64,000 nucleotides of DNA, from assembly GCA_963749085.1 (NCBI GenBank), contig CAVVLG010000003.1, positions 155,380 through 219,379 on the forward strand, in the 5' to 3' direction. The stretch is from Candidatus Adlerbacteria bacterium (GTDB taxonomy: Bacteria > Patescibacteriota > Minisyncoccia > Phycocordibacterales > SBAW01). A program made the position numbers and the translations under genes. Shown here piece after piece: positions 8,216 to 35,921 of the stretch. Each line of letters opens with the position of its first letter. Position 1 is the stretch's first letter. The notes under the pieces are model-generated. The model saw only the letters and a list, made by a program, of their open reading frames with translations. It was not told the DNA's origin and ran no database searches.

Positions 8216-8231
8216 TTTTACTCTGCAGCCC

Positions 8232-8262
8232 GCGGCGCGAAAGTGCCGCGTTTTTCTTTCAT
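8232..8262 (+). terminator. Rho-independent terminator
   Basis: gcggcgcgaaagtgccgc hairpin plus gtttttctttc. Confidence 0.55.
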
Positions 8263-8263
8263 G

Positions 8264-8337
8264 TGGGCGCGGAGGGACTCGAACCCCCAACCCCGGATGT
8301 ATAAGATCCGTGCACTAACCAATTGTGCTACGCGCCC
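8264..8337 (-). tRNA. tRNA with anticodon UAU (predicted tRNA-Ile decoding AUA); CCA not encoded
   Basis: Reverse complement GGGCGCGTAGCACAATTGGTTAGTGCACGGATCTTATACATCCGGGGTTGGGGGTTCGAGTCCCTCCGCGCCCA folds as cloverleaf: 7-bp acceptor, U8, GG in D-loop, anticodon loop CUUAUAC, TTCGAGT T-loop. Confidence 0.7.
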
Positions 8338-8374
8338 AACATTACTGTACTTACAAAAAGACGCTTTGTAAATC

Positions 8375-9157: not shown

Positions 9158-10135
9158 ATGAGTCGCAAACGTGATAGGATGGCAGTAAAGATGCCGAAGC
9201 ATTTGTTGGAGTCACAGGATGTCACTCTCGACCTCCTGTATGAAATCTTCAACAGAGCTGACAAACTTAAAAAGATGGAGCATGAGGGCAAGTTTGATAC
9301 TTGCCTTAAAAACCGATCGGTCATCTTCATACATGATCAACCGAGTAGCCGAACTATTGAATCTTACGCCGAAGCAACACTTGATCTCGGCGGGAGATAT
9401 CGTTCGGTTTTCGTGGAGAATTCTTCCATGAGGAAAGATGAATCGCTAGAGGCGACCGTTATGACCTATGGTGACATCGGTAAAGATGTCGTCATCATCC
9501 GCTACTCCGATGCCAACGCGATATATCGAGCGGCGGTACGCTCAAAGATACCGGTCATCAATGCCGGCTCGAGCAGCGACCAACATCCCTCGCAAGGGAT
9601 ACTCGATCTCAAGACCATCTTTGACCGCGAGGGGAAGTTGGAGGGTACCGCCATCGTATTCGCAGGCAACCTTGCCGAAGGCAGGGCGTCGAACTCTGCC
9701 ATCTATCAATTTTCCAGGATACGGGATGTACATCTGATATTGGCGTCACCTGAAAAATTGAAGGTAAAAGGCCCCCTGCGGTGGCATCTTCATAAGCGCG
9801 AACAGGAAGGAATCATCAAGGTCACTGAGACCAGTGACCTTCGTTGGGGGCTCAGGCAGGTCCGTTTCCTATATCAAACGCGTGATCAGAAGGAGATGTC
9901 GGAAAATCCTAAACTTCTTGCCTTGCTAAAGGATTTCTGGATCACTCGTCAAATGCTTATCGACTATCCCGATCTGGAGGTGTTGCATCCGCTTCCGCAC
10001 AACGACGAGCTTCCGACCGAACTGGAAGATCATCCGCGAGTCCTTATCCACAAACAGATGCGCAATGGCAAGTTTACTCGCCAGGCATGGCTGCAAATGC
10101 TCGCCGAGCATCATCTCGACAGGTACTCCTCCTAA
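9158..10135 (+). CDS. Aspartate/ornithine carbamoyltransferase family protein (PyrB-like)
   Basis: SSRTIESY (degenerate STRTR carbamoyl-phosphate motif), HPSQGILDL (HPxQ), HPLP motif; about 325 aa. Confidence 0.6.
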   Translation: MSRKRDRMAVKMPKHLLESQDVTLDLLYEIFNRADKLKKMEHEGKFDTCLKNRSVIFIHDQPSSRTIESYAEATLDLGGRYRSVFVENSSMRKDESLEATVMTYGDIGKDVVIIRYSDANAIYRAAVRSKIPVINAGSSSDQHPSQGILDLKTIFDREGKLEGTAIVFAGNLAEGRASNSAIYQFSRIRDVHLILASPEKLKVKGPLRWHLHKREQEGIIKVTETSDLRWGLRQVRFLYQTRDQKEMSENPKLLALLKDFWITRQMLIDYPDLEVLHPLPHNDELPTELEDHPRVLIHKQMRNGKFTRQAWLQMLAEHHLDRYSS

Positions 10136-10154
10136 CCTATATCGGCCATCAGAT

Positions 10155-10192
10155 ACCCGTCCCGGATTCATTTCGGGACGGGTTCTTTTTTT
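10155..10192 (+). terminator. Rho-independent terminator
   Basis: acccgtcccg...cgggacgggt hairpin plus T9. Confidence 0.7.
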
Positions 10193-12164
10193 AAAAATCT
10201 ACTTTAATAGAATCGGGAATTATATCCTCCTTCTTTTTCGGCGTGATGCCGTGGACTACAAGAATCTTTTCGAACTCCTCGCGCTCAAGTGTTTCAACTT
10301 CGACTAAACGGTGCGCGATGGCATCGAGCGTCTTGCGGTGCGTGGTGATGATGTCAGTTGCTTTTTTGTACGCTTCGTCGATGATACGTTTTACTTCGGT
10401 GTCGATTTCGCCGGATACTTTCTCAGAATATTCTTTGCCATTAACACCGGCGCCAAAAAGTGCATGGCCATTATCGCCTTCAAGCGCGACGGTTCCCATT
10501 TTATCGCTCATGCCCCACCGGGTCACCATGTTGCGCGCGAGGTTAGTTAAGACCTGCAGGTCGTTGGAGGGGCCTGTGGTTATGTCACCAAAAACCATTT
10601 TCTCGGCGACGTAACCCCCGAGGCTCATGGCAATGTCGTCCAGAAATTCCTTTTTGCTTTGCATACGTTTGTCTTCAAACGGAAGTTTCAGGGTATAACC
10701 CGCCGCACGACCGCGGGAGATGATAGAAATTTTGTGCACGGGGTCGGCATACGGCAGGAGCGAGGCCACGAGTGCATGTCCCGCTTCGTGGTAGGCGGTT
10801 ATTTCCTTTTCTTTTTTATTCAACACATGCGATTTCCGCTCGGGACCAAGCATCACCTTCTCAATCGAGCGGATAAGGTCGTATTGCGCGACGGTCTTAC
10901 GGTTTTCGCGCGCCGCCAAAATGGCGCCTTCGTTCATAAGCGAGAAGAGATCGGCGCCGGAGAAGCCGGGGGTGCGCTCCGCGACCACTTCGAGATTTAC
11001 GTCCTCGGCGAACGGTTTCTTGCGCGAGTGAATTTTCAAAATTTCAAGACGATCCTGCCGGTCGGGCAGCTCAATGACGACGCGGCGGTCGAAGCGGCCG
11101 GGACGAAGCAGCGCCGGATCAAGCACGTCGGGTCGGTTAGTTGCCGCCATGACGATAACCTTTTCATTCGGTTCGAATCCGTCCATCTCCACCAGAATTT
11201 GGTTGAGCGTCTGTTCGCGCTCGTCGTTGCCGCCGCCCACACCAGTTCCGCGTACGCGTCCCACTGCGTCTATCTCGTCGACGAAGATGATTGCCGGCGC
11301 GGCGCGTTTGGCGGTCAAGAAAAGATCCCTCACGCGGCTCGCACCAACACCGACAAACATTTCAACGAACTCCGAACCCGAGATGGAAAAAAACGGCACA
11401 CCCGCCTCCCCGGCTACTGCGCGTGCAAGAAGTGTCTTTCCCGTGCCCGGTGCGCCCATGAGCAAAATACCCTTGGGTATGCGCGCGCCGATATCGAGGA
11501 ATTTTTTTGGATTTTTCAGAAAATCTACTATTTCAAGCAACTCTTCTTTCGCTTCTTTGGCTCCTGCCACATCCTTGAAGGTCACGCGCGTACCCGCATC
11601 GTTAGGGTCAATGACGCGCGGTTTGCTTTGGCCGAAGGAGAACGCCTGCATGCCGGCGCCCCGCACTTGCCTCGAGAGATACCAGACGAAAAACGCGATT
11701 AAGAGAAGCGGCGCGGCGAAGGGCGCCAACAACTGGAGCCAGAACTCCCAGCCGCTCTGGCTGACGATATTTATCGTGACCTTGTTCATCTGCGTACTCG
11801 AAACACCGTAGTCATACAGCGTCTGGGTGAGCGGCGTGCCCGGTTCTTTTTGCGAGGTTTTCTCGGTCGAGGAGGCATTGTTGTAGATGACGTCAAGGTC
11901 GTCTCCGTTGACGTTTATGGTCGCCACCTTCCCCGCCTCGACGTCCTGCGCTACTTGCGAGATAGGTATTGCCTGCGGCTGGGGGCCGCCGCTGGTTGCA
12001 AAATAGGTGTAGGCACCCGCCAGAAGCAGGAGAAGGAGGACTGTAGTGGCCAGATTCACCCAGAAAGAATCTCCCTGCGGTAATTTGGGGAGCCCGGGCA
12101 TGTTACGGCGCGGTTTGGGGGGCTTTTTATCCCCCTGTGTTTGCTTATTCGGAGCGTCTGCCAT
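10191..12164 (-). CDS. ftsH: ATP-dependent zinc metalloprotease FtsH
   Basis: 2 TM, AAA Walker [24 protein letters not shown], second region of homology, HEAGHAL zinc motif; start set at MADAPNKQ to avoid overlap with smpB. Confidence 0.9.
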
Positions 12165-12705: not shown

Positions 12706-13071
12706 GGGAGTGCAAGGCCTAGACAATACATACGTCTCTCTGCACGCAAGAGGGCAGCGGGGTTCTGCTCTAAAAACTCCAAAGATAACTGGCAAGTCAG
12801 TTCAATCACCGTATGCGGTGAACGGTTTCGCTTTCGCTAACGCCTAAGCGACCGCGCTCGCTTCTCCTCTCCTGAAAGAGAAGGCCGAGTGTTATATCTC
12901 GGGATATAGTTTCGCAAACTGATTCTCTGCGAAATTGAAACTTGGAATCTGCGGCGTAATTCGATTTCGTCCGTTTCATACGAATTATGTCAAAGACCTC
13001 AAAGCGCACTAGCTCTTGTAGACCTGCTTATAGATCTGTATTGCACGAGGGTTCGAATCCCTCCACTTCCA
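12706..13071 (+). ncRNA. ssrA: tmRNA (ssrA), about 366 nt
   Basis: Directly downstream of smpB; 3' tRNA-like T-arm GAGGGTTCGAATCCCTC plus acceptor strand CACTTCC plus discriminator A pairing with 5' GGGAGTG; P2 helix caataca (12724-12730) with tgtattg (13038-13044); in-frame tag ORF ending TAA at 12845-12847, candidate tag GKSVQSPYAVNGFAFANA. Confidence 0.65.
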
Positions 13072-13200
13072 CAAATTCAAAAGCCCTTATTTTTCAAGGC
13101 TTTACAGAGCCAGATGACAGGTGGTTGGAACCGCCGTTTTTGAGGAAATTGTTAATTTAAGCCTTGGAATAAGGAGTTTTTGCGGTTCGAATTCAGTTAC
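13072..13200 (+). repeat. Structured repeat A1 (about 130 nt), first copy, immediately 3' of tmRNA
   Basis: About 85 percent identical to 13731-13858; nested long-range complementarity (cccttattt/aataaggg, caaggct/agcctt) and inner helix with compensatory change. Confidence 0.6.
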
Positions 13201-13242
13201 TTCTATCTCGAGTTTGAATCCATCTCAGCTTTTACGTTAAAA

Positions 13243-13271
13243 TTGACAGCGTAGTCTTTGTATGTTATCTT
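13243..13271 (+). promoter_or_regulatory. Sigma-70-like promoter (TTGACA-17-TATCTT)
   Basis: Consensus -35 with acceptable -10 at 3' end of repeat A1, upstream of ORF 13307. Confidence 0.45.
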
Positions 13272-13306
13272 ACTTGCAGTCTTAGTCCCAAGCAGGAGAA
13301 GTACAG

Positions 13307-13516
13307 ATGAATAATATCACGAGAATGGGTGTGGTCGCTTTGAGTTGGTTCTTGGTGTCCGTCTCTGCCACCTGGGCATTTACAACGCTCATCCCCGGCT
13401 GTCTGCTTGGATATTTCTGTCTAGGCAAGGAGGGAGGAAAGGAACTTACCAGAACAATCGTCCTTTCCCCACTTCTTTGGACAAGAAGGTTCGTTGTATT
13501 GTCGAATAGCAACTAG
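13307..13516 (+). CDS. Small hypothetical membrane protein (69 aa)
   Basis: AGGAGA RBS 8 nt upstream; one predicted TM helix; terminator downstream. Confidence 0.4.
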   Translation: MNNITRMGVVALSWFLVSVSATWAFTTLIPGCLLGYFCLGKEGGKELTRTIVLSPLLWTRRFVVLSNSN

Positions 13517-13548
13517 GGACAATCTTCAAACAACTTGGATCTGATACC

Positions 13549-13590
13549 CCGCGCCATCAGCAATGATAAGCGCGGGTTTTTCTTTTATTT
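13549..13590 (+). terminator. Rho-independent terminator
   Basis: cccgcgcc...gcgcggg stem plus tttttctttt. Confidence 0.6.
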
Positions 13591-13655
13591 GCTTGGCAAC
13601 TTTGCAATGTATAAATGTATATACGTATTACCAAATTGCCAAGGAGTTCTATTTT
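13588..13655 (+). repeat. Repeat B1 (about 65 nt) containing palindrome ATACGTAT flanked by inverted ttggcaa/ttgccaa
   Basis: Second copy at 15826-15885 (cgtatatacgtattaccaaRttgccaaggagtt shared). Confidence 0.5.
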
Positions 13656-13730
13656 GAACAAAATAGAATCACCACAATAGAATATTCACAGAAGCAGTGA
13701 CAAGTCCTAATTCGGACAAGACAGCTCCAC

Positions 13731-13858
13731 AAATCCAAAAGCCCTTATTTTTCAAGGCTCTACAGAGCCAGGTAACGGGTGGTTAGAACCGCTGTTTTTG
13801 AGGAAATCGTTACAATAAGCCTTTAAATAAGGGTTTCATGCGGTTCGACTCCTGTTTT
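13731..13858 (+). repeat. Structured repeat A2, second copy; preceded by a copy of the tmRNA 3'-terminal motif CTCCACAAAT
   Basis: See A1; upstream 13718-13737 gctccacaaatccaaaagccc mirrors tmRNA end ccacttccacaaattcaaaagccc. Confidence 0.6.
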
Positions 13859-13879
13859 CTCTCCTGGTTCAGATTCTAC

Positions 13880-13907
13880 TTGACAGAGGTGAATTTTAGT
13901 GTATAAT
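13880..13907 (+). promoter_or_regulatory. Near-consensus sigma-70 promoter TTGACA-N16-TATAAT
   Basis: Perfect -35 and -10 hexamers 16 nt apart at 3' end of repeat A2, 40 nt upstream of ORF 13950. Confidence 0.6.
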
Positions 13908-13949
13908 TAATATAGGTTCATCGACACCAAAGCACACAGGAGATCTGTC

Positions 13950-14363
13950 ATGGGGTACTACTTCCCGAAAGCAAGGTCTCTGAAAGACCTTGACCTGCAG
14001 CAGCAAGAGCGATACAAAATCCTTCGCTCGACAGGTAGAAATCAACAGCCAGCACTTCTCAGCCGGATCGAAACAGTTGAAAAGCATGCTGGTCCAATCA
14101 CCTCGGGTGAAATCTGGTCAGCTCTCGAAGAGCTTCTCCAAGATGTCTTCGTCACATGGATACTCGCGGGAGAAGATCCTGAGAAAGTCCAGTGGGTCGA
14201 TCCAGAGGATCTGACTGAACCGACACCTCCTCCGACCGAAGAAGAAAAGCTTAAAACACGGGAGTGGTTGGAAAGTTTATCTAAACGACCGGGGTATAGG
14301 ATACCACAACCGAAGGTAACTTTGTGGGGATTGCTCCGGTCATTCATTCACAGAAGTTCCTGA
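13950..14363 (+). CDS. Hypothetical acidic protein (137 aa)
   Basis: AGGAGA RBS; driven by consensus promoter; terminator at 14382-14416. Confidence 0.45.
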   Translation: MGYYFPKARSLKDLDLQQQERYKILRSTGRNQQPALLSRIETVEKHAGPITSGEIWSALEELLQDVFVTWILAGEDPEKVQWVDPEDLTEPTPPPTEEEKLKTREWLESLSKRPGYRIPQPKVTLWGLLRSFIHRSS

Positions 14364-14381
14364 GTCATTGCCGACATACTC

Positions 14382-14416
14382 GCCGCCTTTCGCAAGAGAG
14401 GCGGTTTCTATTTATT
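14382..14416 (+). terminator. Rho-independent terminator
   Basis: gccgcct...aggcggt hairpin plus T-run. Confidence 0.55.
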
Positions 14417-14538
14417 AGTACTTTCTTACCTTAAACAAGTTATAATTCGGACAAAACATCTCCGCCTGCTTGACGATGTTCGAACCGCTTTTGGTGTTAT
14501 GCTGTGAAGAGGTTATTTATTAGTTTCTATTTATTTTT

Positions 14539-14952
14539 ATGGCACTCACCTATTTTCTCGCTCAAGTGATAGGGCTGTATCTATTGATTGTAGGACTCAC
14601 CATGCTCTTTTGGAAAAAGCGCTGGATGAATGTCCTTCACGAGTTTTGCCAAAGCCAAGGTGAAACGCTTAGATATATGCTGGGGATAGTAGCTCTTCCT
14701 TTCGGACTTCTATTGGTCTTAGTACATAACTACTGGAACATGGGGGTGCTCGCATTGGTAGTGACGCTTTTCGGGTGGATAATCTTGCTTAAAAGCATTC
14801 TGGTGTTGTTTGTGTTTTCTCCAGAACAGATGGGCCGCTTAGTCAAAGTTTTTTGGATAGAGCAATGGTGGTATGTCTACGTTGTAATAATGTTAATCAT
14901 TGGCGCGTACTTGACGCATGCCGGGTTTACTCAAACTGGGCTGTTGCACTAG
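14539..14952 (+). CDS. Hypothetical integral membrane protein (4 TM)
   Basis: Highly hydrophobic 137-aa ORF; preceded by TATAAT-TTCGGACAAAACA motif. Confidence 0.4.
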   Translation: MALTYFLAQVIGLYLLIVGLTMLFWKKRWMNVLHEFCQSQGETLRYMLGIVALPFGLLLVLVHNYWNMGVLALVVTLFGWIILLKSILVLFVFSPEQMGRLVKVFWIEQWWYVYVVIMLIIGAYLTHAGFTQTGLLH

Positions 14953-15175
14953 CACACAATCAACTTCCAGCTCCACTCACAACTTTCTAATTCGAACTCT
15001 AAGCTATGCCTCAGTATTTGGGGATTTAGCGGTTTGAATCATTCCGATCGCCTCTCAAGTTCGGTTTGGTTAGAACACTTTTTACGAACGTCGGTTTGAT
15101 AACCTCGTATCGGACATCCAACTATGGGGTGGAAAGGTGATAGAATAAAAGGATTATAAATCTTTTAAAATATGT

Positions 15176-16439: not shown

Positions 16440-16928
16440 ATGAAAGAAGTGTACATACGAAATATCATCTTCGGCATCGCCGACAGTTTAGTGTCGACCG
16501 TGGGGCTTCTCGCAGGCATTGACGTTGCGGGTAGCACCCATTCCACCATTATTTTGACCGGTATAGTGTACGCATTTGTCGAATCTCTTTCGATGGCGAT
16601 GGGGAGCTTTCTTTCCGAAGAAGCGACCGAGGAGTTCGAAACTAAAAACGAACACACTTCGACGGCACCGACTGTTGCCGGAGTCGTCATGTTTCTATCA
16701 TTTCTTCTTGCATCGTTCATTCCCCTCTTTCCGTACGTGATTACTGCGTCCTTCTTTGCATTATGGATCTCCATAGGACTTTCGCTTTTCACGCTCTTCA
16801 TAGTTGGTATCGTGATGGCAAAACTTTCAAACATTAAGCTCCTGCGACACGCGGTCAAAATGGTGCTGCTGGGCGGCGCGGCAATACTCGTCGGCGTCAT
16901 CGTCGGCAGATACATCCACATCCAGTAG
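16440..16928 (+). CDS. VIT1/CCC1-family (vacuolar iron transporter-like) membrane protein
   Basis: GIADSLVSTVGLLAG motif and 5-TM profile. Confidence 0.55.
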   Translation: MKEVYIRNIIFGIADSLVSTVGLLAGIDVAGSTHSTIILTGIVYAFVESLSMAMGSFLSEEATEEFETKNEHTSTAPTVAGVVMFLSFLLASFIPLFPYVITASFFALWISIGLSLFTLFIVGIVMAKLSNIKLLRHAVKMVLLGGAAILVGVIVGRYIHIQ

Positions 16929-16930
16929 TG

Positions 16931-18064
16931 TTACTGATACTGGATGAATGACGGCTGCGGAGTGAGCTTGAGTATTTGCGCCGGGGTCAGCATGCCGGAA
17001 CTCGGCGGCAACAGATCGTTTTTATAGAATAGTTTAAAACCCGTAAACTGCACCGGCTCGCCGGCTATAAAGTCGTCATAGGTGGTTATTTTTTTAGCCG
17101 GCGCCCCCCAGCCATCCATATCCATGACTATCTCAACCTGCGGCAGCGGTCGAATCTCTTGATAATTGGTCACCATGTCCTGCGTAAAACGATGCACGAC
17201 CAAGATCTTGGGCGGCAGGTTGTTCTCCGTAACCAGGGTCGCTAAGAAATTAGCAGCAAAATTGATATCGCTTGCATCAAGACTGCCGATAGCGGTATCG
17301 GGACGCTCCCCATTGTGCATCGCGAATTCCGGATCAAGAGAAAGCTCCACCTGGGGGAGACTCAGGTAAGGTGCGAGAAGCGGAACTTCAGTCTCCACAG
17401 TGCTCAACCCCACCTGCACGTCGAGAAACACCAGGCCGTGCACCTGCGCGGCCATGCTGATAGCCTGCTCTATTTGGCTCGCTGGCATCCGCAGTCGATA
17501 CTTCCCGTCGGAACCGGGACTCCCCTGTGCAGTTACAGCAATGTAGTCTATCGCAGGGATAACCGGCGTCGTCGGATCGGCGGCTTGCCACTCGGCGCTC
17601 GTACTTGCAAGCATCTGCAGCACCTGCGAAGGTGGATATTCTCCGAGCACCCCCATCTGAGTTGAGTAAAAATTACCGTAGTAGGCCACGATGCGGTAAA
17701 ACGGCAGTACCGCTCCTGCTTCGGGATAGACAGTCTTGACCGGCCACAGCGAGGTGCTCGTGGCTTCAACGACAGTAGTCGAAGAGATAGTCATCGTTGA
17801 AGAACCGGCTAGGGGAACCTGCACAACTACGGTACGGACGGGCTCGTTGGCGATGGCGATAAGTTTTTGATCATACGCCGCTATGTCGAGCATGGGTGCG
17901 GGATCGGTTTTCGATGGATTGGTGTCCGTAACAATTGCATACTCCACTGAAAAAAGACCTGAGGAGTCGACAAAATATGCAAGTGCCGCGCATGCCGCGC
18001 ACAACACGACACCTCCGGTTATGAGCGAGAGGAGATCTTTGTATTTTTTTAAAAAATGACGCAT
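16931..18064 (-). CDS. Hypothetical membrane-anchored extracytoplasmic protein (377 aa)
   Basis: N-terminal TM; no family assigned. Confidence 0.5.
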   Translation of the reverse strand: MRHFLKKYKDLLSLITGGVVLCAACAALAYFVDSSGLFSVEYAIVTDTNPSKTDPAPMLDIAAYDQKLIAIANEPVRTVVVQVPLAGSSTMTISSTTVVEATSTSLWPVKTVYPEAGAVLPFYRIVAYYGNFYSTQMGVLGEYPPSQVLQMLASTSAEWQAADPTTPVIPAIDYIAVTAQGSPGSDGKYRLRMPASQIEQAISMAAQVHGLVFLDVQVGLSTVETEVPLLAPYLSLPQVELSLDPEFAMHNGERPDTAIGSLDASDINFAANFLATLVTENNLPPKILVVHRFTQDMVTNYQEIRPLPQVEIVMDMDGWGAPAKKITTYDDFIAGEPVQFTGFKLFYKNDLLPPSSGMLTPAQILKLTPQPSFIQYQ

Positions 18065-28080: not shown

Positions 28081-28614
28081 TTATGCAGCCTTCTTGCCTT
28101 GTTTGCGACGGATGACTTCACCCTCGTAGCGAATACCTTTGCCTTTATAGGGCTCGGGCTTGCGTTGCGCACGAACGTTCGCCGCGAATTGCCCGACCAA
28201 TTCCTTATCAAACCCAGAGACGGTCAGCATACCCTTATCGATAGCAATCGCCAGTCCCTCCGGTACCGGCATTTCAACCTTGTGAGAGAACCCGAGCGAG
28301 AGTACAAGCTTCTTGTCTTGCACTTCCCATTTGTAACCCACACCTTCAACCAGCAATTTCTTGCTATACCCCTTGGTCACACCCTCAAACATGTTGCGGA
28401 TATGGGAGGCGTAGGTGCCGATAAGGGCACGGGATTCAAGCGACCCCGACTTGGGCGACACTTGCACTCCTTCCTTCCCCACTTCAATTAAGACCAGACG
28501 GTGAGTAGGGCGGGTTAGTACTCCCTTAGGACCTTTGACACGCACCAAGCCCTCCGTGACGCTGATTTCGGTCCCGGACGGCGTAGCTATGGGTCTTTTT
28601 GCAAGTCGTGACAT
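28081..28614 (-). CDS. rplF: 50S ribosomal protein L6
   Basis: MSRLAKRPIATPSGTEI. Confidence 0.85.
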   Translation of the reverse strand: MSRLAKRPIATPSGTEISVTEGLVRVKGPKGVLTRPTHRLVLIEVGKEGVQVSPKSGSLESRALIGTYASHIRNMFEGVTKGYSKKLLVEGVGYKWEVQDKKLVLSLGFSHKVEMPVPEGLAIAIDKGMLTVSGFDKELVGQFAANVRAQRKPEPYKGKGIRYEGEVIRRKQGKKAA

Positions 28615-28621
28615 AAATAAT

Positions 28622-29017
28622 TTACCAAATCTCAAACAACGCTTCGCCGCCGACGCGTTTTTCATGTGCTTCTTTGCCGGAAATAACTCCGCTCGGGGTT
28701 GAGAGCACGAGAAGTCCATGGCCGCGTTTGACCGGTTTGATGTCGTGAACGCCCATATACATGCGGCGCGAGGGTTTTGAAATTCTTTTCACACCCGAGA
28801 TCGCCGGGCGACCATTTTTATAAGAAAGTATTATTGAAAGCGAATTTCCGCCAAGCGGATTCTTAACCGTTTTCAATTCGCTGACATAGCCTTCTTTGGC
28901 GAGAATTTCCGCGATGGCAAGCTTCATGCGCGAGTAGGGCGCCGACACGCGGGACTTGCCCGCCATGGAAGCGTTCTGTAAACGGATAAGCAAATCTGCT
29001 ATTGGGTCGGTTACCAT
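28622..29017 (-). CDS. rpsH: 30S ribosomal protein S8
   Basis: [16 protein letters not shown]. Confidence 0.85.
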
Positions 29018-29196
29018 GATGATTTTCGGATGCCCGGTATAAGCCCCTCGTTGGCAGCTTCTCTGAAGCAGGCGCGGCACATGCCAAAATCGCGCATGAA
29101 GGCGCGTTTGCGCCCGCAGCGGAAACAGCGTCGAACCACCCGGGATTTAAATTTGGGTGGGCGGTTTGACCTTGCAACTGTTGATTTTTTTGCCAT
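29011..29196 (-). CDS. rpsZ: 30S ribosomal protein S14, Zn-ribbon type Z (61 aa)
   Basis: [23 protein letters not shown]. Confidence 0.85.
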
Positions 29197-29236
29197 GTAT
29201 ATGATTCTGTTGGTTTCCCCCGTTTGGGGGACCTTG

Positions 29237-29263
29237 CAGAAAAAAGGAGCCCCGACTGGGCTC
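29237..29263 (-). terminator. Rho-independent terminator closing the island's minus-strand transcript
   Basis: Minus-strand gagcccagtcggggctc followed by cttttttct; lies between island and rpsZ start. Confidence 0.65.
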
Positions 29264-29328
29264 ACAAGATACTACGCGAATTGGATTTAGAAGTCAAATT
29301 ACCTTATAGATTGCAGCGTAGAAGAAGG

Positions 29329-30042
29329 TCAAAATGGTATTTGAGCTTGTACACGATACGACAATATATTCGTGACTGGCACGCACGTACCCATCAGTCT
29401 GGTGCACAATATCCTTTTTCCGACGTATCCATGCAGGTTAAAGATAAAGGCATTGGCGATGCTTTCGGCAACGATGAGTGCAAAAATCGTTGCGGCTGGC
29501 AGAAGCCATTCGTCAGCATAAACAGCATCACGCGCCAGACGGTTGTCGGCTCTGAATTTTTTCAGGCCGCGCAGACGCCTACGCTCGACGAGCCGGCTCG
29601 CCTCCAGCGTCGCGCCGTGAGCAAGCTTTGCCTCTGCAACCGAGGCACGTGCGTCGGCAACCGCGAGTGTCACGTCGAGCTGGCGCGGCATGCGCGCCCG
29701 GATTTTCTCGTCGGCGTCGTGGAGCTGACTTGCGAGAAACTGCTTAAGTAAGTTGGCGCCCGACTGGATTTCAGCCACGATTTGCCGCTGCGGATCGTTC
29801 AGATCGGCATCGTCTTTGTGCGGACGGTTCTCGACGCCATCGTCTCGCGCCCGCTCGACCAAGCGCAATGACCTGGCCAAGCGCTCAAAGGCGGGACGGA
29901 GGTGGTCATTGACCTCCGGTAGCCAGCGAGTACGCGTCCATGTCGGAGATTTGGAGAAGGTATTCATCGAGCCGCGGAAGTTCATGGCAGTCACCTTAAT
30001 TATTGGTTTGAGCGTGGCCAGTTGTCGCCTGGCTGAAGACAT
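29329..30042 (-). CDS. Hypothetical charged helical protein with C-terminal TM (tail-anchored); contains direct repeat DR1 in its 3' end
   Basis: 237-aa ORF in GC-rich segment; overlapping plus-strand ORF 29224-29751 judged spurious; coding status uncertain. Confidence 0.35.
   Translation of the reverse strand: MSSARRQLATLKPIIKVTAMNFRGSMNTFSKSPTWTRTRWLPEVNDHLRPAFERLARSLRLVERARDDGVENRPHKDDADLNDPQRQIVAEIQSGANLLKQFLASQLHDADEKIRARMPRQLDVTLAVADARASVAEAKLAHGATLEASRLVERRRLRGLKKFRADNRLARDAVYADEWLLPAATIFALIVAESIANAFIFNLHGYVGKRILCTRLMGTCVPVTNILSYRVQAQIPF
29400..29437. repeat. 38-bp perfect direct repeat DR1 (tggtgcacaatatcctttttccgacgtatccatgcagg)
   Basis: Identical copy at 33679-33716; partial copy ggtgcacaata..tccgacg at 33579-33601. 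Confidence 0.9.
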
Positions 30043-30187
30043 CCATGCTTTCGCTGGGTGGTGAGCACAAACTCTTCGCTAAGAAGGTGTCTAAGCGGGA
30101 TCTGTTTTTTGAACAAAGGCATTGCCGGTGCACTAAATGTGAAGAACGGCGTTTCAGGGTTCGAACGCTTCTCGACTACTTGCGCTG

Positions 30188-31249
30188 ATGTGTGGCCGAA
30201 GCTTCGGATTTTTGAGCGCCCGGCGCAGCGTCATTGAATCTTTCGATCGAGAAGGCTATGTCCGCTTACGCGAAGTGGTTGCTCAGAACCCCGAAATTCG
30301 AGTTGCAGGCTTGGCGCAGGGCGGTGGGTGTCTGAAAAAAAGTGCGCTGATATCAACCGAGAAATGGGCGGGTGGGGAGATGGTCATCGAGCGGAAGGCC
30401 GAAAATTTCAGGTTTTTCCATCCGCGGGAGCCCTGGGGTAAAGGCGGGACTGATTATGTCCAGGTGCATTGTCGTCTGGACGATTTATACGGAATGACTG
30501 GACCGGACGCTGAAACAAATAAAGGGCTCTATAACGCGGCAAAGAGTGAAGGCAATTTTAGGGCCGCATACGAGATAATAGTTAGGCATCGCTCCGAGGA
30601 AAAGTTGAAGGCTCTGAAAGAGGTTATTGCCACGTTGAAGACGCCTGCGCTTTTCGTTTATCCACGGAAGCTGGATTTTGGTGACTCGGGCCGCACATTG
30701 GACCCGGAGAGGCCTACGAACGCCTTGCCGGTGACGCTTACCCGGTTCGTAAGCGCGCGAGTAGGCGGAGAGATATGCAAGGACATAATCCAGATGAGGA
30801 TAAGAAAGCGGACGACTCTCAATCGTCTAATACGCTTTCTTTATCAGCCGGCTTTTAAGGGCCGGGTCATTCCTGGCAGGCGATATGTTCTTGTGGACGA
30901 TGTCATTTCATCGGGGGCGCTATTCGCCTCTCTTCGAAGTCACATCGTGAAGGGCGGCGGCCTTGTCATCGGCATGACAGCGCTTGCGCATGTATCAGGT
31001 AGAGATCAGAAATTGGCGATTTCAAGGGATTCGCTGCAGGCAATGAGGATCGAATTTGGCGAAAAGATTGATGCTTTCTGGAACGGGAAGTTCGGGCACG
31101 GAATTGAGCACCTTACCGACCAAGAAGCAAAGTACCTCTTGGGTCGCTGGCGCTCGCAGCATCAGAGCATTCTGTCGGGTTCTCAGCTGCTTGAATGCCT
31201 TGCTGGCGAGATCGAGCATATTCAAATAGCACACTCCAAATATTCGTAG
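30188..31249 (+). CDS. Phosphoribosyltransferase (PRTase type I) domain protein with about 230-aa uncharacterised N-terminal region
   Basis: RRYVLVDDVISSGALFASL PRPP-binding motif; start codon uncertain (no obvious RBS). Confidence 0.55.
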   Translation: MCGRSFGFLSARRSVIESFDREGYVRLREVVAQNPEIRVAGLAQGGGCLKKSALISTEKWAGGEMVIERKAENFRFFHPREPWGKGGTDYVQVHCRLDDLYGMTGPDAETNKGLYNAAKSEGNFRAAYEIIVRHRSEEKLKALKEVIATLKTPALFVYPRKLDFGDSGRTLDPERPTNALPVTLTRFVSARVGGEICKDIIQMRIRKRTTLNRLIRFLYQPAFKGRVIPGRRYVLVDDVISSGALFASLRSHIVKGGGLVIGMTALAHVSGRDQKLAISRDSLQAMRIEFGEKIDAFWNGKFGHGIEHLTDQEAKYLLGRWRSQHQSILSGSQLLECLAGEIEHIQIAHSKYS

Positions 31250-31297
31250 ATCGCAGTATTTTGCCTTATAATTCATGCTTTTTCATGCTCCCTTGAC

Positions 31298-31332
31298 AAT
31301 TGTACTGTATTTGATAGTATATCCAAAGTTGT
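31298..31332 (+). promoter_or_regulatory. Promoter (TTGACA-16-TAGTAT) overlapped by repeated TTGTACT(G/T)TA / GTAC palindromic operator-like sites
   Basis: cccttgacaattgtactgtatttgatagtatatccaaagttgtactttacagcagtac upstream of ORF 31375. Confidence 0.45.
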
Positions 31333-31374
31333 ACTTTACAGCAGTACTTCGTCAAATCTCCAGTCCGATCCTCG

Positions 31375-31671
31375 GTGCCTGACAAATCGGGCATCGACAA
31401 CTCGGAATGGAGGTTGCTAATGGCACATTCACAATGTTGCAGCGCAAACTCGCCTGACGCGTCACGCGCTGATATCGAAGACGAAGCTTGTCGTCGGCTG
31501 ATGATTTCGCTCTACGGCAGTGAAGCCGAGGCGAGGCTTGTCGCTGAGGCCCTCTTACGGGACATAACGCCCGAAGAGGAGGAACTGATCGAGCGGCGGT
31601 ACAATGCCGGCGACCAAATCGCTGACCAAATTGTGCGCGAGCTTGGTTTCCCTCCCGAACCGGAAAGATAA
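31375..31671 (+). CDS. Small HTH protein, sigma-70 region-4-like (98 aa)
   Basis: ITPEEEELIERRYNAGDQIADQIVREL resembles region 4.2 HTH; C-terminal 55 aa duplicated at N-terminus of ORF 32704. Confidence 0.5.
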   Translation: MPDKSGIDNSEWRLLMAHSQCCSANSPDASRADIEDEACRRLMISLYGSEAEARLVAEALLRDITPEEEELIERRYNAGDQIADQIVRELGFPPEPER

Positions 31672-31715
31672 GGTGAGGGTGGCCGAGCGAGCAATTGGTA
31701 AGCGACTTCGACTTA

Positions 31716-31745
31716 AGACCCCGTAAATGCGGGGTCTTTTTGTAT
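31716..31745 (+). terminator. Rho-independent terminator
   Basis: aagaccccgtaaatgcggggtcttttt. Confidence 0.75.
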
Positions 31746-31855
31746 GCGCTTTATTTTTGGGTATTCTTCAAAAAACGGTGCTGGTTTGGACACTCTGGGT
31801 ACATAGGGTCGCTTAGCCTATCATAGTGGAGTAGAACTCTAGCACGAGAACGGCA

Positions 31856-32707
31856 ATGATACGACTGCAGCAAGCTAGAGTCTCGAAACGCGGTCCAATT
31901 CCGATGGAACGTCGGCGACCATGCGACTATTTAAAAGCACTGACCCCGGCGCATATGAGGGACGTTCGTGAGCATTTAAAAGCAATATACGCGGTGTATT
32001 CAGGGCGTCAGTTGGCGGACGATTGTGCCCAAGTAGCAATACTGTTCCTGTGGAAATACCCCTATGACTTAGAAATCGGTCCGTCCATGGGGGATGAACG
32101 CGATGCCGCTTGGTACGTAGCTGTACATAATTCGCTTCTGCGCTTCGCCAAGTCTCGCGAATTTAGAGGGTCGGTATTGCGGACCGTTTATAAGGGCAAC
32201 TTTAGCAAAGTGTCCCAAACAGAATCCGAAGGCGAACAAGACCCAGATCCAAATTGGGATACGAGCATTCGATGGTTTGAGGGTAATCTCCATTGGGAAA
32301 AGGTTTTCAAAAGTTTCCGAGCATTTTTGGCGGAGCAACCGGATATCGATCCCCTAGAGATTCAGTTGATCGACCAGCTCCACAAAAACGCCGTGCGTGA
32401 GACGATAGATGAAGGAATGGAAGATGTTTTTCGAGGCGAGAGCTTTCAAGTCGTTCACCAGCCGCTGCTAGAAGCATTGCAAGAGCATTTTCGAGCAACA
32501 GGCTGGAATATTGAAATGGTGCGAGTAACGCTCGCGAAAATTCGCCGTCATGCGATCCAATATCGGGAATCTCTAACCACTGGTGACCTTTTAGAATTTC
32601 ATGGACCCCTTCGAACTCAAGCAGATAGCCAATCGTCTATCGAGAAGAAGAAATCCAATGCCGAGCTTTGTCAGCAGACAACATCGACCAAAAGGCCAGT
32701 ATCATGA
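31856..32707 (+). CDS. Hypothetical protein with ECF-sigma region-2-like N-terminal part
   Basis: QLADDCAQVAILFLWKY and AWYVAVHNSLLRFAKSRE resemble sigma-70 regions 2.2 and 2.4; ATGA-overlapped with next gene. Confidence 0.4.
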   Translation: MIRLQQARVSKRGPIPMERRRPCDYLKALTPAHMRDVREHLKAIYAVYSGRQLADDCAQVAILFLWKYPYDLEIGPSMGDERDAAWYVAVHNSLLRFAKSREFRGSVLRTVYKGNFSKVSQTESEGEQDPDPNWDTSIRWFEGNLHWEKVFKSFRAFLAEQPDIDPLEIQLIDQLHKNAVRETIDEGMEDVFRGESFQVVHQPLLEALQEHFRATGWNIEMVRVTLAKIRRHAIQYRESLTTGDLLEFHGPLRTQADSQSSIEKKKSNAELCQQTTSTKRPVS

Positions 32708-33570
32708 CCAAAAAACCCACCCCTGTGAGCGGAACGACAAACGAAGACGAAGCTTGTCGTCGGCTGATGATTTCGCTCTACGGCAGTGAAGCCGAGGCGA
32801 GGCTTGTCGCTGAAGCCCTCTTACGGGACATAACGCCAGAAGAGGAGGAACTGATCGAGCGGCGGTACAATGCCGGCGACCAAATCGCTGACCAAATTGT
32901 GCGCGAAGCTGGATTAGAGTCAAAAGTGCCGGCCGCGATGGGTTATGACGTTGATATCCCGTTCACCGAAGAACAGGAAAAGGAATTTGTCTCATTCGTG
33001 GAAGCAGTTTATCGCCGAGCAGAAGATCAACAAGATCGCACTGCACCTTTAGAGCGAGTTCCAGCTGGCGTCCTGGGCGCTCTGGCAGAACTCGGGCATG
33101 TTGCAGCGGCTAAAGTGGTGTCCGTAGCCGATGTAGTTGGGGAATGGCTATCTTTGCCTTTGCAGGCCTTTAATACGATCGACCTCGCGTACGGGAAGCC
33201 TGCTTTAGCGACTGCCGAGGTCGCTAGCGAACAGGTGCTGCATAAAGTCGGCAAGCGTGTTTTTCTGGCTGACCTAGGCGCAGAAAGCTCGCAGCTAGCG
33301 GAGAGCAAATGGCGATCTGCTGAGATAAGATTGATATTGTCAATTAATTCGCGTCGCGAAATTGATGACGTGAGCATCACGGCTCGTGGAAGTGAACTCG
33401 ATAAATTGACGAATGAAATTCTTGATGTGCGCCTGAGGGATCGAGCGGGTAACAAGCGGACCATTGCTCTTTCTCGGGAACGGCTGCAAGGCTACATGCG
33501 AGGTAAATCACTTTCCGGCGATCTCGCAGAATTAGAGCTACTGGTTCATGTCGACCATCGACCAACGTAA
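32704..33570 (+). CDS. Hypothetical protein with N-terminal sigma-region-4-like HTH (duplicated module)
   Basis: N-terminal 55 aa identical to C-terminus of ORF 31375 (165 nt, 2 mismatches). Confidence 0.5.
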   Translation: MTKKPTPVSGTTNEDEACRRLMISLYGSEAEARLVAEALLRDITPEEEELIERRYNAGDQIADQIVREAGLESKVPAAMGYDVDIPFTEEQEKEFVSFVEAVYRRAEDQQDRTAPLERVPAGVLGALAELGHVAAAKVVSVADVVGEWLSLPLQAFNTIDLAYGKPALATAEVASEQVLHKVGKRVFLADLGAESSQLAESKWRSAEIRLILSINSRREIDDVSITARGSELDKLTNEILDVRLRDRAGNKRTIALSRERLQGYMRGKSLSGDLAELELLVHVDHRPT

Positions 33571-33678
33571 GCTACCGGGGTGCACAATAGAACCTCCGAC
33601 GCTGATCGGCGCTATCGCTCGCGAACTCGAACGTGAGTTGAATGAAGCGATTCCCGCGGAGCTGAAAAGTTGTCGGCT

Positions 33679-33716
33679 TGGTGCACAATATCCTTTTTCC
33701 GACGTATCCATGCAGG
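33679..33716. repeat. 38-bp perfect direct repeat DR2
   Basis: Identical to 29400-29437; 17 nt from cas2 stop. Confidence 0.9.
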
Positions 33717-33733
33717 AGCCAGTAAATTAAGGC

Positions 33734-34045
33734 TTATTTGACTATCCGCACAATCTCATACGCGGGCTTGCCCGTGATGGCCTGTAGCGTCTCATGCCCT
33801 ATGCTAGCATCCTTTGTGCACGACGCACACATAGCGAACGAATAATGCGAATCAGTCTTTCCGCAGAACAGAGTCTTCAGTTTGCTGTCGAGCGACACAC
33901 GTTCCTCCCGATATAAGGTCCCAATATACAGCTTTTTATGTAGCGGCCTGAGCCCAAAATCCTTGCACCAATTCTCAGCCTGTCGCGTCCTGCGCCAGTT
34001 ACGCGTTTGCCAGGATACGACTACCGTAAATAGCAGATTGTTCAT
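33734..34045 (-). CDS. cas2: Putative CRISPR-associated endoribonuclease Cas2
   Basis: Immediately follows cas1 (6-nt gap); about 100 aa; N-terminal LLFTVVVS..RRTRQ pattern like E. coli-type Cas2 (MLVVVTENVPPRLRGRL). Confidence 0.5.
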   Translation of the reverse strand: MNNLLFTVVVSWQTRNWRRTRQAENWCKDFGLRPLHKKLYIGTLYREERVSLDSKLKTLFCGKTDSHYSFAMCASCTKDASIGHETLQAITGKPAYEIVRIVK

Positions 34046-34051
34046 AGTGTG

Positions 34052-35062
34052 TTAGAGCAGCAAGGAGAAATCAAATGCTGCATATGTGTCCTGCTTTTCC
34101 AAGAAATAGCGGGCAAGCGCCCTGCTTTGCTCCTCGATAATTACTTGGAGGGTGCGTTGCTTGCCTTTCCATTTTACCGTTTTATTAAGCTGTTTGAATA
34201 CTGCCTCAACTACCTTGGCCTTCCCCTCGGGAGAGAGCCGGTACTCCGTGTTGTTTACTTTCTCAAAATCGCCCCGCCTGCCCAGCTTTTTTTCGAGAAA
34301 GAGCGGAAAGATTGCCGAATCCACCACTGGCACGCGGAATTCTTCGACCATGTCCAAAACTAGGGCCGGTTTGCCATAACGCTCGGAGTGATACAAGCCA
34401 AGGTACGGGTCAAGGCCGATATAGAGGCAGGCACGTTCTACTTCGTTGTAGAGAATGCCGTAGCCGTAGTTGATAGCACTGTTGAATTTGTCGCGGCCTT
34501 GCGGGATGCGACCCGGAAACTTATGTAATTGCCTAAGCGATTGCCAATACTTTTCTGCAATGAATCCTTCGATGCCGAACAACTGCTCGCGAGCCTTGTC
34601 GCTCGGAGGAATGGTATTGATGGTCTTGGAGAGCGTCTCGGCCTGAACGATTCCCTTTTCAAAGTCAGCTCCGCACTTGGCCATCAAGAATTTCAAATAG
34701 GTGATTTGGTTTTTGCATTTTCCCGCGATGAAGCTTTTGGCGAGCGAGAGCGCCTGCGGAAGGTCAGTCGCGACCTCGAGCTGGGCGCGTCGAGTCGTAG
34801 CTAACCCTCGCGCATCACTGCCAAAAATCCTGCCGACAGGTTTGCCGAAGGATCCGAGATACACGATGTCAACTTCGTGCTCAAGGGCAAGCTTTACGGC
34901 GTGGGTCGAAATGGAAGAGGGCCGAAGAATGACGATTTTGCTGAGCCTGCGTATCGGATATTCTTTGGTAATCCGCTTCTTGGTCTTCGAGGGCAGGCGC
35001 AAGACAAGGCGCTCACCTGTCGAACCTATATACGTGCCGTAGGTGTCGATGAGGAGGTCCAT
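34052..35062 (-). CDS. cas1: CRISPR-associated endonuclease Cas1 (start trimmed to MDLLIDTYG)
   Basis: NSAINYGYGILYNEVERACLYIGLDPYLGLYH...LVLDMVEEFRVPVVD matches Cas1 catalytic His/Asp signature; upstream part of listed ORF overlaps rplE and is discarded. Confidence 0.85.
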   Translation of the reverse strand: MDLLIDTYGTYIGSTGERLVLRLPSKTKKRITKEYPIRRLSKIVILRPSSISTHAVKLALEHEVDIVYLGSFGKPVGRIFGSDARGLATTRRAQLEVATDLPQALSLAKSFIAGKCKNQITYLKFLMAKCGADFEKGIVQAETLSKTINTIPPSDKAREQLFGIEGFIAEKYWQSLRQLHKFPGRIPQGRDKFNSAINYGYGILYNEVERACLYIGLDPYLGLYHSERYGKPALVLDMVEEFRVPVVDSAIFPLFLEKKLGRRGDFEKVNNTEYRLSPEGKAKVVEAVFKQLNKTVKWKGKQRTLQVIIEEQSRALARYFLEKQDTYAAFDFSLLL

Positions 35063-35083
35063 GGGGAATATATAACAGGCGGG

Positions 35084-35110
35084 TAATAAAAAAGGATACC
35101 AGAAGTATCC
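35084..35110 (-). terminator. Rho-independent terminator after rplE, upstream of cas1
   Basis: Minus-strand ggatacuucugguaucc followed by U6. Confidence 0.65.
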
Positions 35111-35153
35111 GAGCAGAGACGATACCAACCTTGGAGAGAGAAGTAAAGAGTTT

Positions 35154-35690
35154 CTACTTTTTGAACGGGAACCCGAGGTGTGCGAGATACTCCTCGGCTT
35201 CTTTTTTATTTTTCGCAGTGGTGACGATAGTCGTCGCCATACCGAACACGTCCTTAAGTTCTTCATCGGTGGTCTCTGGAAAAACAATATGTTCTTTGAT
35301 GCCAAGTGTATAGTTGCCCATTTCATCAATGGCACCTTTTGAGATTCCTTTGAAGTCTTTAGTGCGCGGGAGCGCCACATGGATGAGACGGTTCAAAAAA
35401 TCTTCGGCACGCTTGCCGCGCAGTGTTACTTGGTATCCTACTTTGTCGCCAATGCGCGTTTTGTACGTCGCAATGGACTTTTTGGCTCCTCGCGTGGCTG
35501 GTTTTTGTCCTGTTATCTTTGCCAAGCGGTCGGCAACCAATTCAACCTTCGGTTTATCCTTGGCCATCTTGCCCACACCAACTGAAATAACCACTTTTTC
35601 TATACGCGGTACTTGCATGGCGTTTTTCCATTTGAATTCGGTTTTCAAAGCGCTGAAAGCCTTTTTCTGTTTGACTTGAATAAGTTCCAT
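35154..35690 (-). CDS. rplE: 50S ribosomal protein L5
   Basis: Full-length L5 similarity. Confidence 0.9.
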   Translation of the reverse strand: MELIQVKQKKAFSALKTEFKWKNAMQVPRIEKVVISVGVGKMAKDKPKVELVADRLAKITGQKPATRGAKKSIATYKTRIGDKVGYQVTLRGKRAEDFLNRLIHVALPRTKDFKGISKGAIDEMGNYTLGIKEHIVFPETTDEELKDVFGMATTIVTTAKNKKEAEEYLAHLGFPFKK

Positions 35691-35693
35691 AGG

Positions 35694-35921
35694 TTATTTC
35701 TTCCGAGCAACTTTGCTCACGTGGATGGGAAATTGCTTGTCTATAATCTGACCTTTCTGCCCTTCTTTTCGCGGCTTCTGGTGCTTTTTGCGCAGCCCCA
35801 CGCCTTCAATAACCACGAGTTGTAATTTCGGGAACGTTTCGATCACCTTCCCTGATTTGCCTTTTTCATTACCGGAGATGACCATCACGGTGTCGCCTTT
35901 TTTTACATGCAACGTATTCAT
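35694..35921 (-). CDS. rplX: 50S ribosomal protein L24
   Basis: KOW motif KKGDTVMVISGNEKGKSGKV. Confidence 0.85.
   Translation of the reverse strand: MNTLHVKKGDTVMVISGNEKGKSGKVIETFPKLQLVVIEGVGLRKKHQKPRKEGQKGQIIDKQFPIHVSKVARKK

Follow-up and report, generated by a model that had tools for sequence, protein, structure and literature searches.

A cas1-cas2 pair is located between the ribosomal protein genes rplE (L5) and rpsN/rpsZ (S14) in a 64-kb stretch of contig CAVVLG010000003.1 from a Candidatus Adlerbacteria bacterium. The whole 64-kb stretch is referred to as the window, and coordinates are positions within it. Two identical 37-nt direct repeats follow the pair directly and bracket a single segment of 4,242 bp, 88% of which is coding. 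The locus is probably an effector-less, maintained adaptation module, whose integrase would insert long DNA fragments and duplicate the repeat. Related loci fetched for comparison are designated L001, L002 and so on, and homologous proteins P0001, P0124 and so on.

The repeat array

The 38-nt string adjoining cas2 has two exact occurrences in the 64 kb, one at 33679-33716 and the other, 4,279 bp away and 100% identical, at 29400-29437; none is expected (100 shuffles). Family comparison sets the repeat unit at 37 nt, the 38th shared base lying outside the family consensus, CCTGCAnAnnnnnGTCGCAAAAAGGATATTGTGCAAC. Repeat 1, the cas2-proximal copy (33716-33680, minus strand), reads CCTGCATGGATACGTCGGAAAAAGGATATTGTGCACC, and repeat 2, the distal copy, occupies 29437-29401 (minus strand). 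Both are perfect and in the orientation of the cas genes. The insert between them, the only spacer of the array, spans 33679-29438 (strand not assigned) and would represent captured coding DNA. The 17 nt between the cas2 stop and repeat 1 (33733-33717, minus strand) end in ...CTGGCT and form the leader-repeat junction.

The original prediction described an orphan pair with no detectable array and only a single 38-nt repeat, a description that the second repeat copy contradicts. Array finders and a reading for ~70-bp periodicity miss the array because its single spacer measures 4.2 kb. The degenerate partial copy that had been placed 103 nt away corresponds to 33579-33601 (minus strand, inside the insert; CGTCGG..TATTGTGCACC), where CGTCGG accompanies 11 nt that agree exactly with the 3' end of the repeat. 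This stretch aligns with a score of 26, which is not significant, the best scores in shuffled 64-kb sequence being 24-30; as a decayed repeat it is suggestive by its location. The locus shares with CRISPR adaptation systems a Cas1 with the conserved Glu/His/Asp metal-binding residues, an adjoining Cas2 and adjacent identical direct repeats in fixed orientation, but not the uniform short spacers (about 26-72 nt), the window spacer being 4,242 nt long. An exact 38-nt repeat search of genome, metagenome and viral collections gave no match; such a search is unsuitable because family members differ at several positions, and in the fetched loci they were located by fuzzy search. The Rfam CRISPR-DR models gave no match up to E=10 across 28900-35800. 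A hairpin is possible in the repeat (82.7% of cells paired), with covariation that is not significant (48 of 500 shuffles equal or better).

Cas1 and Cas2

The gene cas1 (35062-34052, minus strand) encodes 336 aa and is separated by 6 nt (34051-34046, minus strand) from a 103-aa Cas2-like gene (34045-33734, minus strand). The original prediction was right in these two assignments, in the position of the pair, co-directional between rplE and the S14 gene, and in the lack of an effector, Cas4 or reverse transcriptase nearby. Cas1 was identified by profile (PF01867, E=5.9e-67; TIGR00287, 229.6 bits against a cutoff of 71.7), and the placement is borne out by the domain matches of the flanking genes (see below). 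No Cas effector, Cas4 or reverse transcriptase domain was found among the 20 largest other open reading frames (ORFs) of the window, which are mostly housekeeping genes, two of them being without a Pfam match. The start of the 336-aa protein agrees with the gene calls in the independent assembly L001, with P0001 and with all homologues. A 442-aa ORF from the mechanical ORF list was rejected, its start lying within rplE and being unsupported.

The subtype-specific NCBIfam models all score far under their cutoffs (I-D 165/385, I-G 163/560, I-C 155/385, V 95/300). The best solved-structure match of Cas1 is the Cas1 4n06 (E=1.3e-32, 116.7 bits); the casposase 6opm scores 91.3 bits. E165, H225 and D237 are invariant in 18 Cas1 proteins of the clade and align with conserved residues of solved Cas1. 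The closest relative is L124, with a Cas1 94% identical in amino acids and 84% nucleotide identity across the unit; against it dN/dS is 0.028 for cas1 and 0.065 for cas2, at dS ~1. These sequence comparisons indicate that both genes are under strong purifying selection; with low dN/dS and intact catalytic residues, the locus does not qualify as vestigial. The original hedge towards a minimal array or something else was well directed. More than 1,300 Cas1 homologues were found at E<=1e-20; the best 120 homologue clusters are 56-100% identical, and those that are named belong to Parcubacteria, Paceibacterota or Patescibacteria.

The 103-aa protein taken alone reaches 13.5 bits, under the Pfam PF09827 cutoff of 23.8, and a word-indexed homology search returned near-identical or self matches only. 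A family alignment was built from 20 orthologues at the equivalent position in related loci. Its profile matches six PDB sequences, of which the named chains are Cas2 (best 7f84_A, E=0.0054), and PF09827 is matched weakly, below cutoff, by 16 of the 20 members (best 4.5e-5). A single-sequence AlphaFold (AF2) model (pLDDT 65.7, core ~80) has beta-alpha-beta-beta-alpha-beta topology, and a Foldseek comparison of this model with the PDB gave Cas2 for all of the top 16 matches (TM 0.43-0.68). The classical beta-1 Asp of Cas2 is substituted (W-Q-T in the window, W-Q/E-T across the family); C27, C73, C76 and a C-terminal (Y/F)E(I/L)(V/I) tail are conserved. By profile and predicted fold the protein is a divergent Cas2.

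Contents of the insert

The insert carries ORFs on the plus strand at 30188-31249 (353 aa), 31375-31671, 31856-32707 and 32668-33570 and, at its repeat-2 side, a truncated gene on the minus strand (29985-29438), the ORF of which reads through the repeat to 29329. From the called start at 29985 this gene keeps the N-terminal ~183 codons of a family of ~470-550-aa proteins. The complete ORF (30042-29329, 237 aa) has 128 homologues by HMMER, most of them 465-554 aa long and aligned over the first ~200 residues only, and these alignments stop at query residue ~202. The 60% identity to P0124 (522 aa) breaks at query residue 202/203, which corresponds to nt 29438, the junction of insert and repeat 2. 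Because homology stops exactly at this nucleotide, one end of the insert is a breakpoint within a gene. This favors the capture of a fragment with arbitrary ends over a mobile element complete in itself or a cassette that functions as such. A word-indexed search for the truncated gene gave near-identical or self matches only. Neither a transposase or integrase nor terminal or inverted repeats of its own were found in the insert.

The tetranucleotide composition of the insert is moderately atypical, 2 of 55 background windows being equally distant; that of cas1-cas2 is typical. The 353-aa ORF matches phrog_22413 (E=8.4e-27) and has weak protein matches to three phages, confined to its phosphoribosyltransferase-like part. 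The 300-aa ORF (32668-33570) had no match, no nucleotide match to the insert was found in phage and plasmid collections, and exact-protein look-ups of the insert proteins returned only the genome of the window itself. The ~500-aa family that is truncated in the insert has 25%-identical relatives on rhizobial megaplasmids. One such example is L143 (Rhizobium johnstonii pRL11, 285192-289603), where the homologues lie in a conserved four-gene megaplasmid cluster of three hypothetical proteins and an OmpA-family protein. The insert also contains a 174-nt direct repeat, 97% identical between 31476-31649 and 32742-32915, at which short-read unitigs break. It encodes a segment of ~58 aa, EDEACRRLMISLYGSEAEARLVAEALLRDITPEEEELIERRYNAGDQIADQIVRE, that is common to the 98-aa ORF at 31375-31671 and the 300-aa ORF, where it falls in the N-terminal part.

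The pattern in related loci

About 45 non-redundant related loci were compared. In ~30 of them, which with few exceptions carry the label Patescibacteria, Cas1 is 54-94% identical to that of the window. Where Cas1 is at least 54% identical, a member of the 37-nt repeat family begins, in nearly all cases, 3-40 nt past the cas2 stop, in cas orientation. The number of copies per locus ranges from one to eight, and 15 loci hold arrays (2-8 copies). Three repeats are present in L005 (short-read assembly; start-to-start distances 1299 and 1519 bp), five in L016 (long-read assembly; 1369, 1416, 1377 and 2414 bp), six in L030 (417-kb contig of a metagenome-assembled genome, MAG; 1075-2910 bp) and eight in L026 (closed 876-kb chromosome; 250, 2563, 181, 616, 4044, 423 and 177 bp). 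The repeat-insert architecture is thus shared by long-read assemblies, including a complete chromosome. The inter-repeat intervals (n=38) measure 37-8,291 nt with a median of ~1.3 kb. The largest of them, in L025, includes the cas1-cas2 unit; without this segment the spacers range from 37 nt to 4,242 nt. Segments of 37-39 nt are confined to L041, and 14 independent arrays are made solely of long inserts. In L041 (Buchananbacteria; 10001-10102, 16661-17892) only the first ~37 codons of cas1 remain, and an array of seven repeats ~6.5 kb downstream mixes four 37-39-nt spacers with spacers of 351 and 471 nt; this state may be transitional or decaying.

Repeat copies within a genome are identical, with rare single mismatches, and between genomes they vary at positions 7-13 and 26-29, as expected if each array was copied from one template repeat. 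The upstream junction of the first repeat is conserved in most loci (...GCT|CCTGCA, typically GGCT) and is absent from internal repeats; the ends of the inserts show no motif across the clade. Inserts are 75-100% coding, without orientation bias (9,581 aa on the plus and 10,409 aa on the minus strand), and many of their ORFs run across the repeat borders. Recognizable insert genes are of cellular type and include dnaX, SpoIID, dCTP deaminase, ATP-grasp, MFS, SDR and methyltransferase genes, a GntR regulator, a polyprenyl synthetase and TPR proteins. Several are cut: a 386-nt insert of L026 codes only for positions 57-134 of the 135 of the NDK Pfam profile, a kinase in an insert of the same locus is without profile positions 1-155 (the N-lobe), and a TyrRS/TrpRS-like gene of L016 is cut at the last repeat. 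A near-complete dnaX lies in a 3.5-kb insert of L022 (13377-14978, minus strand). In place of its first few codons it has sequence encoded by the repeat, which gives an in-frame ATG (..LHTILFARAMCRLKWRPQ..). Comparisons by tblastx of spacers with each other and with the loci revealed almost no content common to different arrays.

In a neighbor-joining tree all loci with kilobase spacers or single repeats fall into one Cas1 cluster (at least 54% identical). Outside this cluster, at 31-39% Cas1 identity, every array seen is ordinary, with 37-nt repeats and a period of 72-76 bp. Among the nearest canonical relatives is L049 (Cas1 39% identical), which has cas1, cas4 and Cas12f2 (NF049972, 695 bits) and a normal array. 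Cas families other than Cas1 were absent from the precomputed Pfam calls within +/-10 kb of the relatives.

Mobility and chromosomal sites of the unit

Homology between the window and L124 extends from 35063, a single base ahead of the cas1 start codon, to 33680, where the repeat ends, and the flanks are unrelated. In relatives the unit is found at TIM/PGK (L002, L005), dnaN/dnaA (L125) and a Mur ligase gene, murE (L008), and just downstream of tRNA-like gene ends in L016, L018, L026 and L029. The RecJ-HIT-PGK-TIM neighborhood is common to the window, L002 and L005; in the window TIM is followed by T2SSE, with neither cas unit nor repeat. Since relatives carry the unit at other chromosomal places, the rplE/S14 position is, by this comparison, a lineage-specific landing site and not a property of the system.

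Long-read MAG contigs with unrelated flanks share, at 97-99.8% identity, a 1,505-bp block that consists of ~100 bp of upstream sequence, cas1, cas2 and the repeat. Three copies are present in one MAG, and the homology stops at the last base of the repeat. The multi-copy blocks are those of L021, L025, L034 (one MAG), L033 and L023, at positions ~9897-11402. Their 5' boundary is a REP-like palindrome (TGTCCACGACGGGGACCC...), which is also found at L034 2147 and 6185. No target-site duplication was seen at the multi-copy block. As judged from these alignments, the cas1-cas2-repeat unit is relocatable and is multi-copy in some genomes. In L025 a further repeat copy lies 7 kb upstream of cas1 (3038-3074), so that an 8.3-kb segment with cas1-cas2 is bracketed by two repeats; possibly the unit itself might be captured as an insert.

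A tyrosine recombinase gene is located directly upstream of cas1, in divergent orientation, in L124 (1-456), L128 (1173-2114), L130 (477-1442) and L131 (418-1383). The encoded proteins have a Phage_integrase and a SAM-like N-terminal domain, and the carriers include L124, the closest relative of the window. Four loci (window, L002, L005, L012) have a hairpin with T-run ~15-35 nt 5' of the cas1 start; it is absent in L124. Its stems differ and stay complementary (GGATAC/GTATCC, GGACAC/GTGTCC, GGACACC/GGTGTCC, GACTCTC/GAGAGTC); it may be an insulating terminator or a regulatory element.

Proposed mechanism and alternative explanations

In the proposed mechanism Cas1-Cas2 would attack both borders of the cas2-proximal repeat, on opposite strands, through the 3'-OH groups at the termini of a double-stranded, linear DNA fragment. 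The length of the fragment would be neither measured nor trimmed, as Cas4 is missing and Cas2 is divergent; loss of Cas4 and of the effector, as compared with the nearest canonical relatives, together with the divergence of Cas2 are plausible causes of an unmeasured substrate. Gap repair would then duplicate the repeat, giving repeat-insert-repeat. The inserts would be arbitrary coding DNA, probably foreign, in either orientation and with ends often inside genes. With no interference module nearby, the array would serve as a heritable archive of captured DNA and not in classical crRNA-guided immunity; the cell might benefit by acquiring genes, by producing long antisense transcripts or by having homologous sequence at hand for recombination. 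In the genome of the window the relocatable unit would have landed between rplE and the S14 gene. Spacer-integration chemistry fits because intact Cas1-Cas2 is tied to a CRISPR-type repeat, perfect copies of which bracket arbitrary DNA, and because the loci combine a conserved leader junction, inserts without orientation bias and genes truncated at junctions, in contrast with the canonical relatives.

Several points weigh against this interpretation. We infer from the architecture of the loci alone that Cas1-Cas2 makes the inserts. No close pair of strains was found that shares distal inserts and differs in proximal ones, and no donor of the window insert was found in phage and plasmid nucleotide collections or by viral-contig searches. 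Many loci of the clade have one repeat only. Effectors may be encoded elsewhere in the genomes, the 64-kb window and +/-10 kb flanks being the regions covered. Some inserts hold ordinary genes that look intact, such as the near-complete dnaX in L022, and part of the inserts could be resident chromosome that came to be bracketed by a second repeat in another way. Finally, a tyrosine recombinase adjoins cas1 in some relatives.

The alternative that survives best, itself unlikely, regards the locus as a relic: a former CRISPR-Cas system would have lost its effector, its array would be a fossil that rearrangements or insertions of unrelated DNA have broken up, and cas1-cas2 would no longer add anything to it. 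It accommodates the missing effector, the single-repeat relatives and L041, where a truncated cas1 accompanies an array of mixed normal and long spacers. It does not accord with dN/dS values of 0.03-0.07 at intact catalytic residues, nor with repeats that are perfect within arrays, with 14 independent arrays of the clade made solely of long inserts and free of leftover normal spacers, or with a window insert that is without transposase or terminal repeats.

Slightly less probable still is an integron-like or att-site system, in which the repeats would be the sites of a tyrosine recombinase, the inserts would be cassettes or small integrative elements entering as circles with one repeat, and Cas1-Cas2 would be a bystander or accessory. 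Near-identical repeats that separate gene-bearing segments of 0.2-4 kb do resemble chromosomal integrons, and a recombinase gene of this type lies beside cas1 in L124, L128, L130 and L131. However, no recombinase was recognized in the 20 largest ORFs of the window or beside cas1 in most loci, and the inserts are without orientation bias. Genes cut exactly at the junctions are unexpected for cassettes that cycle through circles, and cas1-cas2 is universally linked to the repeat, which derives from a CRISPR repeat family.

It is very improbable that a mobile element inserted once into a lone repeat, or that the assembly is chimeric there. In favor of these readings, two short repeat copies around 4.2 kb could be a target-site duplication, and short-read unitigs of another run do break inside the repeat. 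Yet at least 14 other loci show the same pattern around unrelated contents, among them loci in long-read assemblies and in a closed chromosome. The insert lacks a transposase, an integrase and inverted termini, and a gene is cut at one of its ends. With k=31, unitigs are expected to break at a 37-nt repeat, and such breaks are uninformative on the join.

An effector-less, maintained adaptation module that takes up long DNA is accordingly preferred over these alternatives. A wider proposal is made tentatively, at somewhat under even chances: the Cas1-Cas2 of the clade may be a length-unlimited capture integrase that writes kilobases of incoming DNA, whole genes among them, into an effector-less archive, and the 1.4-1.5-kb unit may be a minimal mobile module that seeds such archives at new chromosomal sites, in the window within the ribosomal protein operon.

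Flanking genes and other features of the window

The interval between L5 and S14 is a 5.96-kb insertion that splits the ribosomal protein operon and has terminator-like hairpins at both ends. The cas genes are co-directional with the ribosomal protein genes on both sides. The upstream half of the operon includes L14 (36305-35925), L24 (35921-35694) and, as its last gene, rplE (35690-35154; PF00281 and PF00673), all on the minus strand. A 91-nt intergenic stretch (35153-35063, minus strand) lies between L5 and cas1. It contains a terminator-like hairpin with T-run, GGATACTTCTGGTATCC TTTTTT (35110-35094, minus strand), 31 nt 5' of the cas1 ATG. On the other side, a 204-nt trailer (29400-29197, minus strand) leads from the array to the S14 gene. 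A promoter-like site (29297-29269, minus strand) and a terminator-like hairpin, GAGCCCAGTCGGGGCTC with T-run (29263-29247, minus strand), were noted in the trailer as consensus matches only. The S14 gene (29196-29011, minus strand; 61 aa; PF00253, E=1.2e-19) is the first gene of the downstream half and is followed on the same strand by S8 (within 28622-29080) and L6 (within 28081-28719); L18 also lies downstream. No target-site duplication was found around the whole 5.96-kb insertion, only similar terminator-like T-runs on each side. A strain with an uninterrupted L5-S14 junction was sought, and only the same arrangement turned up.

The two ORFs without a Pfam match encode 377 aa (16931-18064, minus strand) and 228 aa (7529-8215, plus strand) and are the sole unassigned sizeable ORFs among those checked in the window. 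The stretches 8001-9000 and 13001-15000 have a G+C content of 0.42-0.45 against ~0.51 and may be other islands. The former carries a 221-aa HTH_23 protein (8375-9040), the latter a 24-nt direct repeat at 13078 and 13736.

Significance

To our knowledge, all characterized Cas1-Cas2 integrases measure their substrate, and this ruler is central to CRISPR memory. If the interpretation is correct, the ruler can be dispensed with, as a natural clade inserting 0.1-4 kb at a CRISPR repeat would demonstrate, and CRISPR adaptation would be linked mechanistically back to the long-DNA integration of casposon type. Site-specific insertion of long DNA and molecular recording would then have a natural enzyme at their disposal. 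Under the wider proposal, Cas1 integrases would have a third life-style in addition to casposons and CRISPR immunity, which could be a route of gene acquisition or a defence via long RNA or recombination. Candidate Phyla Radiation bacteria have long been regarded as nearly devoid of CRISPR. This picture would change, as loci of this kind are invisible to array finders and their cas1-cas2 therefore look orphan; they also suggest how very small genomes might gain genes. In annotation, the sequence behind cas2 should be sought again at larger distances wherever a cas1-cas2 pair is called solo. In the searchable full-text literature, which leaves subscription-only literature outside its reach, no description of kilobase spacers, of the clade or of a mobile cas1-cas2-repeat unit was found.

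Comparison with known systems

Stand-alone adaptation modules, with cas1-cas2, with or without an array, and no effector genes, are a category noted in surveys (PMC5704561, PMC6452270). The loci of the clade resemble them in having cas1 and cas2, an adjoining array of direct repeats in the same orientation and no neighboring interference genes. They differ in that the inter-repeat segments are 0.14-4.2 kb of coding DNA and not about 30-40 nt, that the array starts 3-40 nt past the cas2 stop with no long AT-rich leader, that Cas2 is strongly divergent, and that the cas1-cas2-repeat unit is relocatable and multi-copy. A complete CRISPR-Cas system was rejected, there being no effector module among the 20 largest other ORFs of the window or in the +/-10 kb Pfam calls of the relatives. 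The type V-F (Cas12f2/Cas14-type) module of L049, the one locus of this type examined, is similar in its Cas1 (39% identical) and its 37-nt repeats, which end in ...ATGCAAC as compared with ...TGTGCAAC in the clade. Its Cas4, Cas12f2 and regular spacers (74-77 bp period) have no counterpart in the clade.

Chromosomal integrons (IntI, attI and attC cassettes) likewise have a platform beside an integrase gene that gathers repeat-bounded gene segments. In the clade the putative integrase is Cas1 and not a tyrosine recombinase, the repeats are 37 nt long and not imperfect palindromes of attC type, there is no orientation bias, and genes are truncated. Membership of the window locus in this class was rejected, as no recombinase was found near the array in the window, the ORFs are equal in both orientations, and genes are truncated at the borders.

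Casposons share with the clade an integrase of the Cas1 family, insertion of kilobases of DNA with target duplication, as would apply to the clade under the proposed integration, and a mobile Cas1 unit. The locus was rejected as a casposon: no PolB domain is present in or near it, no terminal inverted repeats were found at the borders of the insert or the unit, and cas1 lies outside the repeat-bounded segment and hence outside the inserted DNA. The clade has a Cas2, and the sequence duplicated is a specific 37-nt CRISPR-type repeat as opposed to the 14-15-bp target-site duplication of casposons. Its Cas1 groups with CRISPR Cas1, being nearer to 4n06 than to the casposase 6opm.

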